This document shows positions 18,300 to 60,881 of a stretch of DNA of 64,000 bases, piece by piece (within the stretch, counting starts at the first letter, position 1; the number at the start of each line of letters is the position of its first letter). The stretch lies in IMG/VR virus record IMGVR_UViG_3300031418_000003. The stretch is one strand, 5' to 3'. Under the pieces are notes generated by a model. The model was not told where the DNA came from. It did no database searches and was given only the letters and a program-made list of their open reading frames with translations. Both the position numbers and the translations under genes were made by a program. Source of the stretch: a virus. Lineage: Duplodnaviria; Caudoviricetes.

Positions 18300-20219
18300 T
18301 TAATACTGGGAGTACGCGCCATTCCAACCCATACCGGCAGCCTGTACAGCCTGTGACAGTTGGGTAGTGATAGCGTAGTTCAGGTAATCGTTACCGGTGT
18401 TCATCTGCCACATGGTCGCGGTGCTTGAACCGGACAGAGTCAGAGTACCGGCCTGAGCCATAGCCTGCGCGAAGGTCGCGAAGAAGCTGTTTTCCCAGAT
18501 GAAACGACGGTTCCAGCCATCGAGGATGACGTTACCACCGAACAGCTGAGTCAGGCGAGTGTAGATGTTGAACTGACGAACCTTCAGGTTTTCACCTGCG
18601 ATGGTACCGTTGATCAGACCCTGGTATTCGCTGATAGCATTTTCGTTGTTGCCGTAGTACGCGTCTTGACGCAGGAACATACCGTCGACTTCGGCCAGAT
18701 CGAACCACTTACCATCTTTACCTTGTGCAATACCACTTGGCATGATGATGTTGGTTGCTTTCAGGATTGAATCGCCCGGCGCCCAATCAGTGCGTGGGTT
18801 ACGTGCAGCACCTTTGTTAGCATTCGCCTGTGCAATTTCGCTGAACTTGTTTTTGGACAGCGCATCGAGCAGGGTCAGCAGGGTACGATGATAAGTAGAG
18901 CCAGAAGGCTTACCGACCAGGTTCCACCAGAAATCGGTGTTCGCTACATCGTGGGTGAAGGTTGACAGATCCAGGACATACACAGCGTTTGGAGATACGT
19001 AAGTACCCAGCCACTGATTGATGACCTGCGCGTTGGTGATGTTTTTGTCGGTGATGTACTGTGGAGTACCGAATGCACCGCCGATAGACTGCATGATCTG
19101 AGACAGGTAGAAGTTGAAGTTACCGATATTACCACGGTGACCGACTTCTTTGCTGCGCAGCGCTTCTGAGAAGTAGTTGATGTTGTTCGCACCGATAGAT
19201 GCGTACAGACCCAACAGAGCAGTCAGCAGAGAGCTGTTGTTGTTCAGGGTTTCGCCTGGAACAGTCAGACCAGTAGAGATTACTGGAACCAGTGGACCAA
19301 CTACTGCACCCGGTGCACGCTGACGAGCGCCCTGGAACTGACTCATTGACATTGCTTCCAGAGAAACAGTCATGTAGGAAGTTGCAACAGAACGGCTCTG
19401 TGAGCTGTTTGCGTTCTGGGTGTTGTTTTTGTTGGTGGTAGAGATCTTGGCAGACAGGTTGTACGGAGTAGGTACGCCGTCGATGATGACTTTGTGAACC
19501 GGCTCGATACGCGCTACTGCAGTATCATCTTTACCGAACAGCTGACCGTCTTTGAACGGGTTAGGGAATGACACACCTGCAACGGTCGCTTCCAGAGAGG
19601 CGATGTTGAACAGAGAGGTTGACCACTCTTTCAGGATGCTGTTGGTTACCTGACCGATCATGTCTTCGGTGCTGATCTGGTTTTTGATGAACGGTTCCAG
19701 GTTGCGAACAACTGGTGCCAGAACGATCACTTTGGTGTACTGTTTGCCTTCGATGAAGCTGTACTGAGCTTTCACTTTCTCCAGCAGCTGACCATCCATG
19801 AAGTTGGACGCTGGTTTAGCGATCGCACGCGCCGCTGGTTCGTTGGCCAGGTAGACAGATTCGGTCACTTCGGTGATACCGGCTTTGTAGAACAGAACTG
19901 GCTGAACGTAAACCACGCTACCGATAACGGTATGCAGACAGATGCCTGGCAGGCTTGGAGAGATGTCAGAAGTGATGTTCTGAACTTTCTTCGGCAGTGA
20001 CAGTTTCTGCGCTTCAGTTGCGGTGTTCTGGTTCAGCGCTTCGATGGTCTTTTCGATACGCTTCACAACTTCTTGCACTTCGGCGATGTTGTGAGTCGAA
20101 GAGATCAGGTTCTGCTGACCCAGCAGAGCGAGCAGCGGGTTGTTGCTTGACATGTTAGTGTTACCTGCGTTGTTAGAAGGTTTGTTGTTGTTTTCAGAAG
20201 CGTGGTTATCAAGAGCCAT
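18300..20219 (-). CDS. chmA: Chimallin (phage nucleus shell protein)
   Basis: 639 aa; immediately upstream of nvRNAP beta' N; disordered N-terminus; strong high-expression codon bias. Confidence 0.85.
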   Translation of the reverse strand: MALDNHASENNNKPSNNAGNTNMSSNNPLLALLGQQNLISSTHNIAEVQEVVKRIEKTIEALNQNTATEAQKLSLPKKVQNITSDISPSLPGICLHTVIGSVVYVQPVLFYKAGITEVTESVYLANEPAARAIAKPASNFMDGQLLEKVKAQYSFIEGKQYTKVIVLAPVVRNLEPFIKNQISTEDMIGQVTNSILKEWSTSLFNIASLEATVAGVSFPNPFKDGQLFGKDDTAVARIEPVHKVIIDGVPTPYNLSAKISTTNKNNTQNANSSQSRSVATSYMTVSLEAMSMSQFQGARQRAPGAVVGPLVPVISTGLTVPGETLNNNSSLLTALLGLYASIGANNINYFSEALRSKEVGHRGNIGNFNFYLSQIMQSIGGAFGTPQYITDKNITNAQVINQWLGTYVSPNAVYVLDLSTFTHDVANTDFWWNLVGKPSGSTYHRTLLTLLDALSKNKFSEIAQANANKGAARNPRTDWAPGDSILKATNIIMPSGIAQGKDGKWFDLAEVDGMFLRQDAYYGNNENAISEYQGLINGTIAGENLKVRQFNIYTRLTQLFGGNVILDGWNRRFIWENSFFATFAQAMAQAGTLTLSGSSTATMWQMNTGNDYLNYAITTQLSQAVQAAGMGWNGAYSQY

Positions 20220-51987: not shown

Positions 51988-52608
51988 ATGCAACTTAAAT
52001 TAATTACATTCGACAAAAACAATTATTCAATCAGTACTCAGTACATTGAGCTAGATGGCCTAGCCATTGTCGAGTACCGTTCTCCGATCACCGGTGAATT
52101 TTCTCCCAGTAACACCCAAATCCCGTCGATAACTGATCCCTCTATAATTGCAGTTATTATCCAGAATAGCTTTGCTAAAGCTGAACCTATTCAAATAAGC
52201 AAGCACCAGGGTGCTTATTTAACGGATTCCGGTAAAACGATGGAGGTGATTAACAGACCTTCAGACTTTGACGATATCCAAATTTGGATCAAGTATGATA
52301 AAGAAGAGGGAAACTGGGAACGCGAAACTCTCAGTAGTTATATGGACGAGATTCACTATCGACGTCTGGAGTATAAATATTTAGTTTCTCCCCAAGGAAT
52401 GAATCCAGAAGAAGTGGAGAAACAGATTTCCCTTACCATGGAGGTTGGTAAAAGCGTACTTTGGAGCCGTTATATAAAAGGTACGTCTTTAACTTTCAAA
52501 CTTTCCAGCCAATTCGAATATGACCGGTTCTACAACGACCCAGATTACCAGTTCATCAAAGTTCCGGTTGGTGTCGACCCTAACACGCAAGGGTTTAAAC
52601 TTACATAA
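51988..52608 (+). CDS. Hypothetical protein
   Basis: 206 aa ORF. Confidence 0.75.
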   Translation: MQLKLITFDKNNYSISTQYIELDGLAIVEYRSPITGEFSPSNTQIPSITDPSIIAVIIQNSFAKAEPIQISKHQGAYLTDSGKTMEVINRPSDFDDIQIWIKYDKEEGNWERETLSSYMDEIHYRRLEYKYLVSPQGMNPEEVEKQISLTMEVGKSVLWSRYIKGTSLTFKLSSQFEYDRFYNDPDYQFIKVPVGVDPNTQGFKLT

Positions 52609-53261
52609 GTATATTATGTAATTCAATCGAGTGTAACTGTTTGCTGTTCTGAGGAATAGCATGGTTTCATTACCCCGTTATATTCGACTGTAAGACCCTC
52701 GTTATCCAGGTGTGGGTACATAACGAGGGCAAACCAGCAGGTTGCACTGCTGGACTAAATCCAAGAGTGAAAGCTGGCTTAAGTCCAGTAAAAACTAAGT
52801 AGCTCTTGGTGGGCGATGCAATAGTTTGAAAACTACTGTGTCATAGCAACGCGTCTAAAGTAAACGGTCCCTTCGTATAAGCTCAATACACTTTGGCGTC
52901 CGCGCCGAAGAAATAAGAGATGAACCCGAAACACTCTCAGGGACCCCTCTTCGGAGATAATAGCTTTAGAAACGGGAACGTTGTGCCCATTCCTTAACGA
53001 TGGTTATCCGTCGTTATCCCTTTGTACCAGTGGCTGATATCCAAGTAGAGCTTTAATTATACCTGACGGATAGCGCTCACAGTGTTTCAACCATTGGTAC
53101 AACCTCTTGAGGATCTTGAACGAAAACCGTAGGGTAACCGCTGAGCACATTGCGTTGCATTCAAGGCGGCTGTAGCAGGAGACTGGGTAGTCTTCCTGGG
53201 TGATATCAAGATCCTCAACCTTATCTACTCTCCGTGATATGGAGTAGACAAACCCTGTGGT

Positions 53262-53369
53262 GGGGGCATCGTAACCATCTGATGAGTCCGCGATGTAAAA
53301 AACAATGAGACGAAACGGGTTCTGTCAAAGGGGACTCCAACTCCAGACAGATCCGTCATGAATCGCTCC
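53262..53369 (+). ncRNA. Type I hammerhead ribozyme
   Basis: CUGAUGA 53279-53285; stem II GUC/GAC; GAAA 53312-53315; stem III cgg..tctgtc/gacaga..ccg; GUC cleavage triplet 53355-53357; stem I cat/atg plus ggggc/gctcc. Confidence 0.85.
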
Positions 53370-53614
53370 GCCTTAACTGTGAAGAGCATCCTCAGTCTAC
53401 GATTCTAGAGGAACAGCAGCGCTACCTGCAAAGGACCATTGGCAAATGGGATCTTAGGGTTAGCAAACAGTCCGCTCCTTTTGCCAGAGGAGAAGTTGTC
53501 AAAACCAAGAGGTGTAGACAGCCTTTAGTTCACTGTAGTGAAGAATCGGGGTTGCTCCCGTAGTAGTCACGAACAGTGATCTTTAGAGTGTTTACCGGAT
53601 AACAATATCGTACG

Positions 53615-53640
53615 CCCCTACCTCCTCACGGGGGTAGGGG
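53615..53640 (+). terminator. Intrinsic terminator closing the large ncRNA
   Basis: cccctacctcc-tcac-gggggtagggg followed by tttatgttt. Confidence 0.7.
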
Positions 53641-53756
53641 TTTATGTTTGGCTTTTCATTTGATCATATGAGCTCGTTCCATATATGTCCTAGGATGGAT
53701 GATATATGAAACATCTTATTATAGTTAATAAGACTATTTCGAAATAGAGGTAACAT

Positions 53757-54611
53757 ATGAGTTTGAGTAGCCCTGTCGATTTTGCTATCGACTATGTAAT
53801 GAACGGTCCAACCGATATCTCGGAATATCTGTTGAAGTTGGCCTTTCACAATCCCAATAACGGGTACGGTGGCATCTGGGGAAATCCCAATGACTCCTTC
53901 TCTGTAGAGCAGGGTATCCGTGAAAAAGTCATCGCCAAGATGGTTGCGCCGTTACTTCAGGTAGCCGGTGGTCAAACTGAGATCATTGATTTGTCCGGTG
54001 CACAGATTGAGAATTTAGCAGGCGGTGTTATTTGGGTTTCAGTACCCGACTTCATGACCGGTGGTCGTCGTATCATCGAGGTAATCGAAGTCTACCCAGG
54101 CAATATCAATCGAGCGGTTGCTAACGGTTATAATTTTGGCAGTGCTGCAACTTGTGGTGGCGGGGCAATCAATAACTCGCTGAGCCGATTGATGACTGGA
54201 TTAACAGACAGTAACGTTACTCGTTCTTTCAACAGCTTTACTATTGTTGGACCCAACTCTTTCCTGATTCGTGATGCGGGTTCGGCAATGTTTAACATGA
54301 TCGCCAAAGTGGTTCTCTCCTATGACGAGAGCTTTAACGGCGTACCTGTTAAGATGTTTGATAAGTTTGCTGAGTTAGTTGAACTCGGTACCAAAGCTTA
54401 CATCTATAAAACTTGCCGTCGCGGGATGCAAGAAGCAGTCTCTCGTTTTGGTGTAACTGTAGATGATGTCCAAGATGACATTCAGGGATACTCCGATGCT
54501 GCTCAGCAGTTCAAAGAGTTCTACAACGACAAGATGAAGAAGTACATGGCTTATGCTGATGCCAAAGGTAAAACCGACCAACTTAAAATGATTGTTCCAA
54601 GGAAACGATAA
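53757..54611 (+). CDS. Putative virion structural protein
   Basis: 284 aa; GAGG RBS; late-type plus-strand operon (context only). Confidence 0.6.
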   Translation: MSLSSPVDFAIDYVMNGPTDISEYLLKLAFHNPNNGYGGIWGNPNDSFSVEQGIREKVIAKMVAPLLQVAGGQTEIIDLSGAQIENLAGGVIWVSVPDFMTGGRRIIEVIEVYPGNINRAVANGYNFGSAATCGGGAINNSLSRLMTGLTDSNVTRSFNSFTIVGPNSFLIRDAGSAMFNMIAKVVLSYDESFNGVPVKMFDKFAELVELGTKAYIYKTCRRGMQEAVSRFGVTVDDVQDDIQGYSDAAQQFKEFYNDKMKKYMAYADAKGKTDQLKMIVPRKR

Positions 54612-58556: not shown

Positions 58557-60881
58557 ATGAGTCAATTGGAAAGAGCCAAAAAGGTTCTGGAGCATCTTGG
58601 GTTAAAATGGTCCCAGCTCCCCGACTACTTAATGGATGACAAAAACAAACGTACGCAGTTGGCAGACGAAGATACTCGTATCCTAGCCCACTTTGAGGAA
58701 GACACGCTCTGGACATTAAAGACCGTCCGGTTCCTGAAAGACTTCCAACGGTACAATGCTGGTATCCATTTCAACACGTCAAATAAATCATTTAAACGTA
58801 CTGCAGAATTGTTCCGCAGTATGGGGATTAAGAACTACTATTTCATGTTGCAGCTAAACAACCCTATGCTGCAAGATGTGGATCCCTGGGATCCTAACCT
58901 CGATGATGTCACCCGCGCAATGATCCATAACGAATGTAATGAAAACATTTGGTACATCATTCGTGAAGTGGTCATGATTGGTGGGCGGCGTTTCCGTGGT
59001 AACCGTGCTGTCCTGTCATTTATCTGGGCATGCCTTTGTCATATCCCAACGACCATTCTAATGCCACGTCAGTCTGGTAAAACGGTGGGAATGCAGGTAC
59101 TGGCCTTTATCATGCAGTACTTTGTGGGTCGTGGTTATCGAACCGGGTTAATTACCTTGGCCGCATCAAACCGAATGCAGTTCGTGGAAGCCATCAAGAA
59201 GATCAGGGCAGGTTTACCCGATTACCTTATCAATGTCACTTACAAAGACAAAGATGCTGGTAACATGCTGTCCTATGAAGCATTCGGGGTCGAGTTCAAG
59301 AACACCTTTGAAGTGCGTGTTCCCTCCGGTGGTGCCGACGGTGCTGAGAACGTATCGCGTGGTTCAACCTTTGAATCACTGCTGTATGACGAACCGGCCT
59401 GGACTAAGTACATTGAGAATATTATCAATGGCTCGGGTCCTGCGACCCTGACTGCTCAGAAGGAAGCCCGTGAGAAGGGCATCCCGTACTTCACTGCCAA
59501 AGCAACGACACCTAACTCAGTATTAAAAGAGGAAGGTCGTTTCATGCACCAGGACTTCATGGACTCAACTGAGTGGCGTGAAGCGTTCTTTGACAGCTTC
59601 TCTGAAACCCATCTGGTCAAACGTCTGATCAAAGCGTCTCCTATCAGTAACGTCACCTTCCCGAAACTGGGTATGATGTTTACACACCTTCAGCTTGGCT
59701 TGGGTCACGCTTGGGTAAAAGAGACAATGGATAAGCTGGGTCTGTCTTGGTCTAAAGCTAAGATTGACTTGTTGATGATGTGGACGGAAGAGGGCGAGAG
59801 TAAACTCTTCGATGACTTCACGCGTGAGAAGTTGAACGAAGCCAAACAAGATCCGGTCTGGAATGAAGAAGTCAATGACACAGGGTTGTTCATCGACTGG
59901 TTTATAACCAAAGATGAATTGGAAGTGTTTATCAACGACCCTGATGAATATTTCTTTATGGGAATGGATACCTCGGATGCGAACAACCGAGATGCAATGA
60001 CATTGGTTATAAGGCGAGCTAAGACAGGTGAGAATGTCGGGACAGGTCGATACCCATTGGCGTTTGCCGATGACGTGACAGAGGTATTAAAAGAACTTCT
60101 GATCCGTATCCCCAACAGTCTTCTGTTGATTGAACGTAACCGTGCCGCTCACATGATCGAGCGTCTCTTGTTAACTCTTCCGGCTTATAACATTGATCCA
60201 TTCAGACGCATCTTTAATGACATCATTCAAGACCCGGTGAAATACAAGAACGAATACAAAGATGTGAGTGAGATTCACTTTAAACATCGCAGTAAAGAGT
60301 TCTACTTGCGCTTCAAACGTTTCTTTGGTTTCTACACTGGACCACAGACTCGCCGTGAGATGTATGGGTTTATTCACGAGGCTGTCTCGTTAACTGGTGC
60401 CGGCATTCGCTTTAAACTGTTGGTTGATGAACTGATTGGTTTGGAGATCAACAAAGAAGGTCGTATCGATCACGGAAACAAAACCCACGATGACTTGGTG
60501 GTGGCGTGGTTGTTGTCTTACTGGTTTATTAAACTCGGTTATAACAAAACGTATTATGGTATTCCTCAGGGAATGGTCATGACACAGATTATAACCTTGA
60601 AGAACAACGGTGATGCACCGCAATACACTAAGAACCAACTGGAAATGTTTATCAAGATCAAATCACGGATTAATGACCTGACCAAGGAGTTGATGCAAAC
60701 CACCAATAACATCATTGCAGAGCGTATTGAGATGGAGGTTCGCAAGCTCTCTGAGTTTATTCCTAAAGAGATGAAAAAGACCATCACCATCGATAACATT
60801 CTGGAAGAGGCGAAAGCTGAACGTAATAAACGTGCAGTGGCTAAACGCACTCGCTTTAATGGATCAGTCCGTTACCGATAA
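58557..60881 (+). CDS. terL: Terminase large subunit
   Basis: Walker A PRQSGKT; Walker B LLYDE; nuclease GMDTS and HDDLVVAW. Confidence 0.93.
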   Translation: MSQLERAKKVLEHLGLKWSQLPDYLMDDKNKRTQLADEDTRILAHFEEDTLWTLKTVRFLKDFQRYNAGIHFNTSNKSFKRTAELFRSMGIKNYYFMLQLNNPMLQDVDPWDPNLDDVTRAMIHNECNENIWYIIREVVMIGGRRFRGNRAVLSFIWACLCHIPTTILMPRQSGKTVGMQVLAFIMQYFVGRGYRTGLITLAASNRMQFVEAIKKIRAGLPDYLINVTYKDKDAGNMLSYEAFGVEFKNTFEVRVPSGGADGAENVSRGSTFESLLYDEPAWTKYIENIINGSGPATLTAQKEAREKGIPYFTAKATTPNSVLKEEGRFMHQDFMDSTEWREAFFDSFSETHLVKRLIKASPISNVTFPKLGMMFTHLQLGLGHAWVKETMDKLGLSWSKAKIDLLMMWTEEGESKLFDDFTREKLNEAKQDPVWNEEVNDTGLFIDWFITKDELEVFINDPDEYFFMGMDTSDANNRDAMTLVIRRAKTGENVGTGRYPLAFADDVTEVLKELLIRIPNSLLLIERNRAAHMIERLLLTLPAYNIDPFRRIFNDIIQDPVKYKNEYKDVSEIHFKHRSKEFYLRFKRFFGFYTGPQTRREMYGFIHEAVSLTGAGIRFKLLVDELIGLEINKEGRIDHGNKTHDDLVVAWLLSYWFIKLGYNKTYYGIPQGMVMTQIITLKNNGDAPQYTKNQLEMFIKIKSRINDLTKELMQTTNNIIAERIEMEVRKLSEFIPKEMKKTITIDNILEEAKAERNKRAVAKRTRFNGSVRYR

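Follow-up and report, generated by a model that had tools for sequence, protein, structure and literature searches.

A candidate gene for a large, hammerhead-punctuated structured RNA in one clade of nucleus-forming jumbo phages

The virus record IMGVR_UViG_3300031418_000003 (Duplodnaviria; Caudoviricetes) was analysed over a stretch of 64,000 nucleotides (nt), referred to as the window, which corresponds to bases 197056-261055 of a viral record that is 266,753 bp long and ends in direct terminal repeats. Chimallin (18300-20219), split subunits of a multisubunit RNA polymerase and the large terminase (58557-60881) are encoded in the window and identify the carrier as a nucleus-forming jumbo phage. 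The element studied here, a candidate RNA gene, occupies a gap between two protein genes. On its upstream side lies an open reading frame (ORF) of 206 amino acids that belongs to no known family (51988-52608). The downstream gene starts at 53757 and codes for a DUF7484 protein described as a virion structural protein. No ORF longer than 54 amino acids was found on either strand between the stop of the first and the start of the second. At a threshold of 60 amino acids, positions 52609-53663 (1055 nt) formed the longest ORF-free run of all 266,753 bp, and the runner-up measured 444 nt. A reading made from the sequence alone, without database searches, had described this interval as the longest non-coding stretch of the window, a statement that extends to the whole genome. 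The candidate RNA lies on the + strand in the orientation of both neighbouring genes. A gene for an HNH endonuclease is located 1.7 kb upstream, and ARAGORN detected no tRNA gene anywhere in the 267-kb genome.

Thirteen distinct homologous sequences were assembled from nine cultured phages and from metagenomes, and all occupied one locus. The cultured members are Pseudomonas phage OBP, Edwardsiella phage pEt-SU, Klebsiella phage N1M2, Kosakonia phage Kc263, Serratia phages Yubaba and Sureiya, Shewanella phage SXP01, Pantoea phage Survivor and Erwinia phage AH04. The last of these was found by blastn; its region was 82% identical and carried no annotation. Using the downstream DUF7484 protein as query returned five viral contigs, and following this protein in cultured phages added the loci of Kc263, Yubaba, Sureiya, N1M2, SXP01 and Survivor. 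A pattern of the hammerhead core matched 14 metagenome loci, among which contig L023 was the sole homologue, and all seven matches in genome contigs were unrelated. Scanning viral contigs with a pattern of the 5' core recovered OBP alone. The gene order common to the members is (tRNAs)-glutaredoxin-(tRNA-Met)-RNA-DUF7484 virion gene-phrog_2921 gene-thymidylate kinase-terminase. In the relatives, one to six tRNA genes lie just upstream of the RNA, and in the clade of the window the 206-amino-acid ORF stands at the position of tRNA-Met. The RNA is kept in a genome without any tRNA gene, and its role is therefore independent of phage tRNAs.

None of the homologous records annotates the RNA, and in a few of them doubtful coding sequences overlie it. 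Across the 13 members, the longest ORF over the RNA ranged from 54 to 172 amino acids and differed in strand and place in each. Frames confined to single phages were N1M2_252 (L035:2371-2883, - strand), QYN80068 of Kc263 (L033:3033-3224) and an ORF of 172 amino acids on contig L004 (2595-3113, - strand). None of the three is conserved in another member, and they are probably annotation artefacts.

The RNA-bearing phages are exactly those in which the identity of the DUF7484 protein to that of the window reaches 68% or more. In Aeromonas jumbo phages, with DUF7484 proteins of 59-67% identity, the RNA was absent. Searches of the locus or the whole genome with nhmmer, blastn and two covariance models, of which the E-values are rough because the models were home-built, did not detect the 5' core in Aeromonas jumbo phages, EL-like phages, RisingSun, pTD1 or Ea35-70. 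A 17-bit match in EL-like phages was rejected as a homologue, as it lacked the hammerhead core. On these sequence comparisons, the putative RNA class does not extend beyond a single clade of nucleus-forming jumbo phages, the OBP / pEt-SU / N1M2 / AH04 group.

Several measures indicated a structured RNA on the + strand. The 995-nt body folded with a minimum-free-energy z-score of -8.76 (+ strand), compared with -4.36 (- strand). In a consensus fold of five close homologues, the energy was -242 kcal/mol in the forward and -200 kcal/mol in the reverse direction, compared with -141 to -166 kcal/mol in 15 column shuffles, and 41 compensatory pairs were counted against 4-13 in the shuffles. Many conserved G.U pairs would become A.C mismatches if read on the - strand, and the hammerhead core and the terminator likewise indicate the + strand. 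RNAalifold derived 209 consensus pairs from a MAFFT alignment of the 13 sequences, itself imperfect in the variable domains, and 105 of these pairs showed compensatory changes. In a covariance-model alignment of the universal 5' core, 93.2% of the cells were paired and 15 of 24 pairs changed on both sides, compared with 8.5±1.7 in shuffles (0/500); when the partners were slid by one to three columns, 33-53% of the cells paired. This alignment is fitted to its model and hence favoured, and the unfitted pair counts based on MAFFT agree with it. The helices that the sequence-only reading had listed at 52627-37/52677-87, 52696-705/52720-29, 53023-33/53091-101 and 53107-19/53206-18 are all present, with pairing maintained through sequence changes in the 13 homologues. 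Its proposal of a large structured phage RNA on the scale of GOLLD and ROOL, for which covariation among homologues had been named as a check, is borne out by this covariation and by the folding energy on the + strand.

No Rfam 15 family was matched in the window at gathering thresholds, in agreement with the earlier statement that the RNA could be assigned to no known class. At E≤10, the single relevant match in the region was a hammerhead below threshold. Seven homologous loci, three searched at E≤5 and four at E≤10, gave no match. The covariance models of GOLLD, ROOL, OLE, raiA, HEARO and other catalogued large RNAs were unmatched in the window and in the seven loci, and no paper on this RNA came up in the literature searches.

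The element contains the embedded hammerhead that the sequence-only reading had proposed. Stem I strand, core, stem II, GAAA, stem III, GUC and the second stem I strand follow one another in the order of a type I ribozyme. The motifs CUGANGA, GAAA and GUC were invariant in 13 of 13 sequences, read from fixed anchors with no freedom of alignment, and the sole variable position, N7, was U, C or A. In all 13 members, the cleavage triplet GUC (53355-57 in the window) linked stem III directly to the 3' strand of stem I. In the anchored register, stem I was paired in 44 of 52 cells compared with 30.5±2 after shuffling (0/2000), with the variants CAU/AUG, UAU/AUA, CAG/CUG, CACC/GGUG and CC/GG. The pseudoknot between the stem I side and loop II was retained as CAUCGU/GCGAUG, CGUCGU/GCGACG, CCCG/CGGG, UGUCGU/ACGACA and GUUCGU/GCGAAC. 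Pseudoknots of this type are present in roughly 40% of natural hammerheads, and rapid cleavage depends on them (PMC3088659). A conformational switch between distal stem I pairing and the flanking hairpins was considered and found unsupported: the distal pairing fails in OBP and both hairpins covary. From its sequence, the ribozyme would be a further example of the known hammerhead class, with the complete anatomy, a score below the Rfam threshold and predicted cleavage.

Coordinates of the features are collected in Table 1.

Table 1. Features of the candidate RNA gene and its flanks; positions are those of the window
Feature	Position	Strand	Description
Genome motif sites	188, 5411, 10549, 20323, 47923, 58466, 61539	- (all)	Motif match
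Promoter-like box	52609-52625	+	Invariant 17-mer in the five closest phages, 1 nt before P1; upstream sequence diverges
P1	52627-37/52677-87	+	RNAalifold; G.U pairs; equivalent in distant members GUYGG/UCRAC
P2 hairpin inside P1	52642-49/52654-61	+	Compensatory UGUUC/GAAUA, CGGUC/GACCG, AGCCC/GGGCG
Universal 5' core	52688-52815	+	13/13 members
Junction GUAAGACC	5' core, before P3	+	Invariant
P3	52694-703/52722-30	+	5' core
P4 hairpin	52732-40/52747-55	+	8/9 pairs covary; AAAUCC junction between P4 and P5
P5 and inner hairpin P5a	52761-68/52802-09; 52773-78/52783-89	+	Followed by UGGUGGG
P6-P9 domain	52811-52988	+	Closed by 52811-14/52985-88 and 52846-51/52979-84; helices with compensatory changes
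P9	52915-19/52933-37	+	5/5 pairs covary
CUC-UUCG-GAG hairpin	52947-56	+	Differs in AH04 and L005; whole domain missing in L003 and L004
P10 domain	53023-53101	+	Closing helix of 11-12 bp, 53023-33/53091-101, invariant among close relatives
P11 domain	53107-53218	+	Closing helix 53107-19/53206-18; 7/13 pairs covary
P11 inner helices	53126-28/53199-201; 53176-84/53189-98	+	3/3 and 5/9 pairs covary, respectively (13 sequences)
P12 hairpin region	53219-53266	+	Just 5' of the ribozyme; loop usually YUGGUG; hairpin of variable sequence in all members; pairing in the window's clade uncertain
Type I hammerhead	53267-53360	+	Core CUGAUGA 53279-85; GAAA 53312-15; predicted cut after C53357, between GUC and A
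Pseudoknot, stem I side/loop II	53267-72 with 53290-95	+	4-7 bp; 96% of cells paired; 4/6 pairs covary
Stem I	53276-78/53358-60	+	3-4 bp in members; all four positions covary
Stem II	53286-88/53309-11	+	GUC/GAC, three invariant pairs; positions 4-5 covary
Stem III	53315-26/53346-56	+	Four invariant pairs, then distal helix with at least 5 different sequences, all paired; conserved apical loop; 5/9 pairs covary
Hairpin with 13-nt conserved loop	53365-53387	+	Loop GCCUUAACYGUGA; opens the 3' RNA; 99% paired, 4 covarying pairs
Optional 3' domain	53388-53613	+	Helices 53466-80/53487-500 and 53514-34/53575-95, inner hairpin 53547-50/53557-60; covarying
Intrinsic terminator	53614-41 (hairpin), element to 53649	+	12 bp, 8 G-C; T-rich tail UUUAUGUUU

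The RNA has a modular architecture. P1 to P5, P10, P11, P12 and the hammerhead are common to all members. In every distant member, a closing helix of 9-14 bp with a very different sequence occupies the position equivalent to P10. The P6-P9 domain is dispensable, a short piece taking its place in contigs L003 and L004. A cUUCGg loop within this domain, listed in the sequence-only reading among the structural features, is present in the window and not conserved. The internal loop of P5 (GUGAAC opposite AAGUAGC) resembles a sarcin-ricin/loop-E motif. Downstream of the ribozyme, the stem of the 53365-53387 hairpin varies as GCUCC/GGAGC, GUCGC/GCGAC, UCCG/CGGA and GCUGU/GCAGC. The whole 3' domain is absent from pEt-SU, SXP01 and Survivor, in which the ribozyme directly precedes the terminator, and contig L003 carries a 60-nt insertion within it. 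The RNAalifold alignments contained no supported long-range helix joining the 3' domain to the core. Two further candidates were discarded. A lookalike of 16S rRNA helix 45 at 53123-45 pairs long-range and is not conserved outside the clade of the window, and the palindrome GAUAUC, considered as a kissing site, overlaps the start of helix P11.

A terminator followed the RNA in all 12 members with an intact 3' end, L023 being cut off. In the window, the U tract TTTATGTTT stands directly after the hairpin, which begins and ends one position outside the terminator that had been read at 53615-40. Eight members share the stem CCCCUAC.../...GUAGGGG followed by UUU(A/U)UG. The stem of AH04 differs by one base pair (GGGGUGGGGG), and that of contigs L003-L005 is CCUCUACUCUCC/GGAGAGUAGAGG. 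The CCCCUAC/GUAGGGG stem is not a general terminator of this genome. In the window, the terminator ends the RNA 115 nt before the next gene. In L003-L005, an ORF of 141-144 amino acids and no known family lies on the opposite strand between the RNA and the DUF7484 gene (L003:3371-3850, L004:3426-3851, L005:3412-3846). It is absent from the window and AH04. A hairpin flanked by A and T runs in the same three contigs resembles a two-way terminator.

At the 5' end, the conserved 17-mer contains TATATTAT (52610-17) and the TATG (52615-18) noted before. TATATTAT forms the core of [G/T]ATATTAT-N4-GTGTA(Y)A, which is enriched more than any other motif ahead of the genes in this genome. Of the roughly 20 intergenic sites of this motif, most lie 28-70 nt and a few up to ~250 nt before a start codon, and the genes that they precede include those for chimallin and an RNA polymerase beta-like subunit. 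The motif is probably the consensus of the early promoters used by the virion RNA polymerase of the phage. AT-rich boxes centred near -10 are typical of early promoters of this polymerase in jumbo phages, and TATG with G at +1 corresponds to the late type of phiKZ (PMC7598289). In Yubaba, N1M2 and a metagenome contig, no promoter-like box is present and the RNA starts about 10-20 nt after tRNA-Met, which suggests co-transcription and a 5' end set by tRNA processing.

Taken together, the locus probably encodes a structured RNA that is large, multi-domain and of a new class, confined to this clade, punctuated by a hammerhead and ended by a terminator. In the clade of the window, transcription of the + strand would start from the phage-type promoter box just before P1, and in other members the RNA would be part of a co-transcript with the upstream tRNA-Met. 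Transcription would stop at the intrinsic terminator. The transcript is predicted to fold into the stem-loop domains P1-P12, joined by invariant junctions and directly followed by the pseudoknot-stabilised type I hammerhead. In vivo, the ribozyme would cut after C53357 and leave a core RNA of ~735 nt that retains the ribozyme body and should carry a 2',3'-cyclic phosphate end. The same cut would free a piece with a 5'-OH end, here a structured RNA of ~290 nt ending in the terminator hairpin and in pEt-SU, SXP01 and Survivor only ~55 nt of terminator. After the cut, only three or four stem I pairs would link the pieces, and with no supported helix between core and 3' domain they should separate. 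The best-supported role of the ribozyme is RNA punctuation, in which it would make the 3' end of the core and free a second RNA where one is present; tRNA processing may set the 5' end in some members. This assignment is drawn from the short forms with the ribozyme directly before the terminator, the lack of a helix between core and 3' domain, the adjacency to tRNA-Met and the like placement of a hammerhead in Miamivirus-type phages (see below). RtcB and the RNA_ligase family (Rnl2-type), which could rejoin the ribozyme ends, were absent from the genome; the search for Rnl1 was uninformative as it had no positive control. At low odds, the core would act as a stable scaffold or catalytic RNA during infection. 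The roles put forward in the sequence-only reading, a scaffold, a decoy or an RNA associated with the virion or nucleus, are conjectural. A wider proposal, in which a core of ~450-650 nt is a new RNA machine of nucleus-forming phages, either a ribozyme or a self-assembling scaffold like GOLLD and ROOL, and hammerhead punctuation is general in chimalliviruses, is conceivable though doubtful.

Some observations weigh against a punctuated RNA gene of this kind. The covariation sample comprises 13 sequences, and part of the pair counts stems from the model-fitted alignment. The best score against Rfam Hammerhead_3 was 16.6 bits compared with a threshold of 48.5, and the loci of seven other members gave no match; this is attributed to the long stem III and the insertions in loop II. 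Such a threshold bears on detection and not on biochemistry. In the window, stem II consists of three pairs followed by a C.A mismatch and stem I of three pairs, so that this copy may cleave slowly. It is nonetheless quite likely to be active. At the promoter-like box, the GTGTA half lies 13 nt downstream of TATATTAT instead of the usual 4-5 nt, and the upstream ORF and the RNA have no terminator between them, which leaves room for read-through transcription. A promoter at 52609-25 is plausible from its motif. The sequence-only reading had given the RNA its own promoter. This claim is partly supported: the TATATTAT core and a TATG of only four bases within an invariant 17-mer speak for it, and the spacing of the motif and the members linked to tRNA-Met, which lack the box, do not.

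The same short stems would suit a single RNA of ~1 kb in which the hammerhead is slow, regulated or a relic and the transcript, in this phage at any rate, normally stays uncut. Alternative folds can also be envisaged, since GCUCC, which follows the cut, may in the window's clade find a partner in the GGGGC upstream of the ribozyme. This alternative pairing does not form in OBP, whereas covariation supports the local hairpins. The catalytic nucleotides are invariant in 13 diverged sequences, and the pseudoknot and the three stems are kept by compensatory changes; purifying selection of this kind is hard to explain for a dead ribozyme. As the short forms also place the ribozyme directly before the terminator, an uncut unit is considered unlikely. 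A long cis-acting element, either the 3' untranslated region of the ORF at 51988-52608 or the 5' leader of the DUF7484 gene, would agree with the shared strand of the neighbours, with the unterminated junction to the upstream ORF and with the constant position of the RNA before the DUF7484 gene. This reading is contradicted by the strong terminator 115 nt before that gene, and in L003-L005 also by the opposite-strand ORF and the two-way terminator in between. Aeromonas, Vibrio, EL-like and other phages have DUF7484 genes and lack the RNA, so that DUF7484 is not an obligate partner of the RNA. The upstream neighbour also varies, being the 206-amino-acid ORF, glutaredoxin or tRNA-Met. Both forms of cis element are thus very unlikely.

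Size, modular peripheral domains, invariant junctions and the nearby HNH endonuclease gene recall a degenerate or unusual self-splicing intron or another known large ribozyme (group I, group II, RNase P RNA or tmRNA) that Rfam might have missed. Even the permissive searches of the window and the seven homologous loci, at up to E≤10, matched none of these. The genes on either side are complete and unrelated and vary from member to member, which leaves no exons to be joined, and ARAGORN found neither a tmRNA nor a tRNA. This origin is regarded as highly improbable. Hardly any weight is left for a protein-coding function, whether as small ORFs, a decayed gene or a leaderless peptide translated from an AUG exposed by the cut. 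The 3' product would start with AUG in eight of 13 members, and the codons that follow allow ...ALTV in OBP, Kc263 and the window. The frame after this AUG is not conserved: it stops after five codons in L023, and the start is AUA in Yubaba and N1M2, CUG in SXP01 and GG in pEt-SU and Survivor. The leaderless peptide is rejected for this reason. Moreover, the AUG and its partner in stem I change together, the helices vary by compensatory substitution and without a period of three, and the longest frames, as described above, share neither strand nor place.

The proposed RNA was compared with known systems. Hammerheads have been reported as common in prophages (PMC3088659). The present ribozyme shares CUGANGA, GAAA, GUC, the three type I helices and the Watson-Crick contact between the stem I side and loop II with the natural pseudoknotted hammerheads of Rfam clan CL00010. 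It differs from them in a very long stem III with a conserved apical loop and in an A-rich loop II of 14-20 nt. Unlike natural hammerheads that lie between protein genes, it sits on the 3' side of a conserved structured RNA of ~0.65 kb, and its job would be to trim or split a non-coding RNA. GOLLD (RF01998) and ROOL (RF03087) resemble the RNA in the size class of 0.6-1 kb, the many covarying helices, invariant junctions, phage carriage and the gain and loss of peripheral domains. A further shared trait is the location in or beside tRNA gene clusters. The window RNA matches neither model, and its carriers are chimalliviruses that infect Gammaproteobacteria. It also has a predicted self-cleaving ribozyme and a two-part product, and we know of no self-cleaving two-part design for GOLLD or ROOL.

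Polycistronic RNA processing punctuated by tRNAs and ribozyme processing beside phage tRNAs are known themes. The RNA resembles them in lying in a phage tRNA island, where tRNA 3' processing could set its 5' end and the hammerhead its 3' end. In contrast, the phage of the window has a promoter-like box and no tRNA, and the product would be a large structured RNA, not a tRNA or mRNA. The pRNA of phi29 is a phage-encoded structured non-coding RNA of the packaging machinery, and the gene described here lies a few kb from that of the large terminase. The two share no homology, the window RNA is about six times larger and the proximity to the terminase may be incidental.

Large intricate RNAs with invariant junctions are rare to our knowledge, and those of known role (rRNA, RNase P, group I and II introns, tmRNA) are all central machines. 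GOLLD, ROOL and OLE are among the few large RNAs that have long remained orphans. The present family would add an orphan that occurs in cultured and tractable jumbo phages, namely OBP on Pseudomonas fluorescens, N1M2, Yubaba and AH04. Its natural deletion variants already outline a minimal core, and the built-in cut site of the ribozyme offers a precise, testable molecular phenotype. The phages that carry it separate transcription, in the phage nucleus, from translation, a setting that bears on the fate of a non-coding RNA. Public annotations are corrected at this locus, where a gap or spurious coding sequences stand over the RNA.

The 107 nt from the terminator to the DUF7484 gene (53650-53756) are strongly conserved in AH04 and in part also in Yubaba and N1M2. 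They contain the conserved motifs ATCATATGA and CCTAGGATGG and the palindrome TATTTCGAAATAG. This segment is likely to be the control region of the DUF7484 virion gene.

A hammerhead and a hammerhead-like site were also found in other phages. The hammerhead model matched Klebsiella phage Miami at 27 bits. At NC_070950 222387-222480 on the + strand (L050:1501-1594), a type I hammerhead, complete and built like that of the window, was recognised by eye, reading UUAU-CUGAUGA-GUCUU..AAGAC-GAAA-stem III-GUC^AUAA (^, cut) with a CGUCG/CGACG pseudoknot. The Miami-type hammerhead is conserved in seven Miamivirus-type records, including Raoultella phage VB_ZK_P1 (L055:1389-2368). It lies ~230 nt after a real protein gene, in which 90 of 136 substitutions fall on codon position 3. 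About 650 nt of ORF-poor sequence follow, which change far less than that gene and fold with z = -5.5. Outside the ribozyme, no homology of the Miamivirus element to the window RNA was detected. The 60-amino-acid gp268 of Miami, on the opposite strand over the hammerhead, is probably spurious. The combination hints that a hammerhead beside a large structured RNA is a wider theme of chimalliviruses. Upstream of this hammerhead (L055:1500-1540, also in Miami L050), a T-arm-like piece, GGGGGTTCAATCCCC, suggests a tRNA remnant beside the Miamivirus element. A weak hammerhead-like site of 15.5 bits is present in Erwinia phage Ea35-70 at 167793-167898 (L054:1501-1606). CUGAUGA, GAAAC and the CGUCG/CGACG pairing are present there, stem II and the cleavage triplet are non-canonical and stem III has an insert of ~110 nt. 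The site may be a degenerate or divergent relative.

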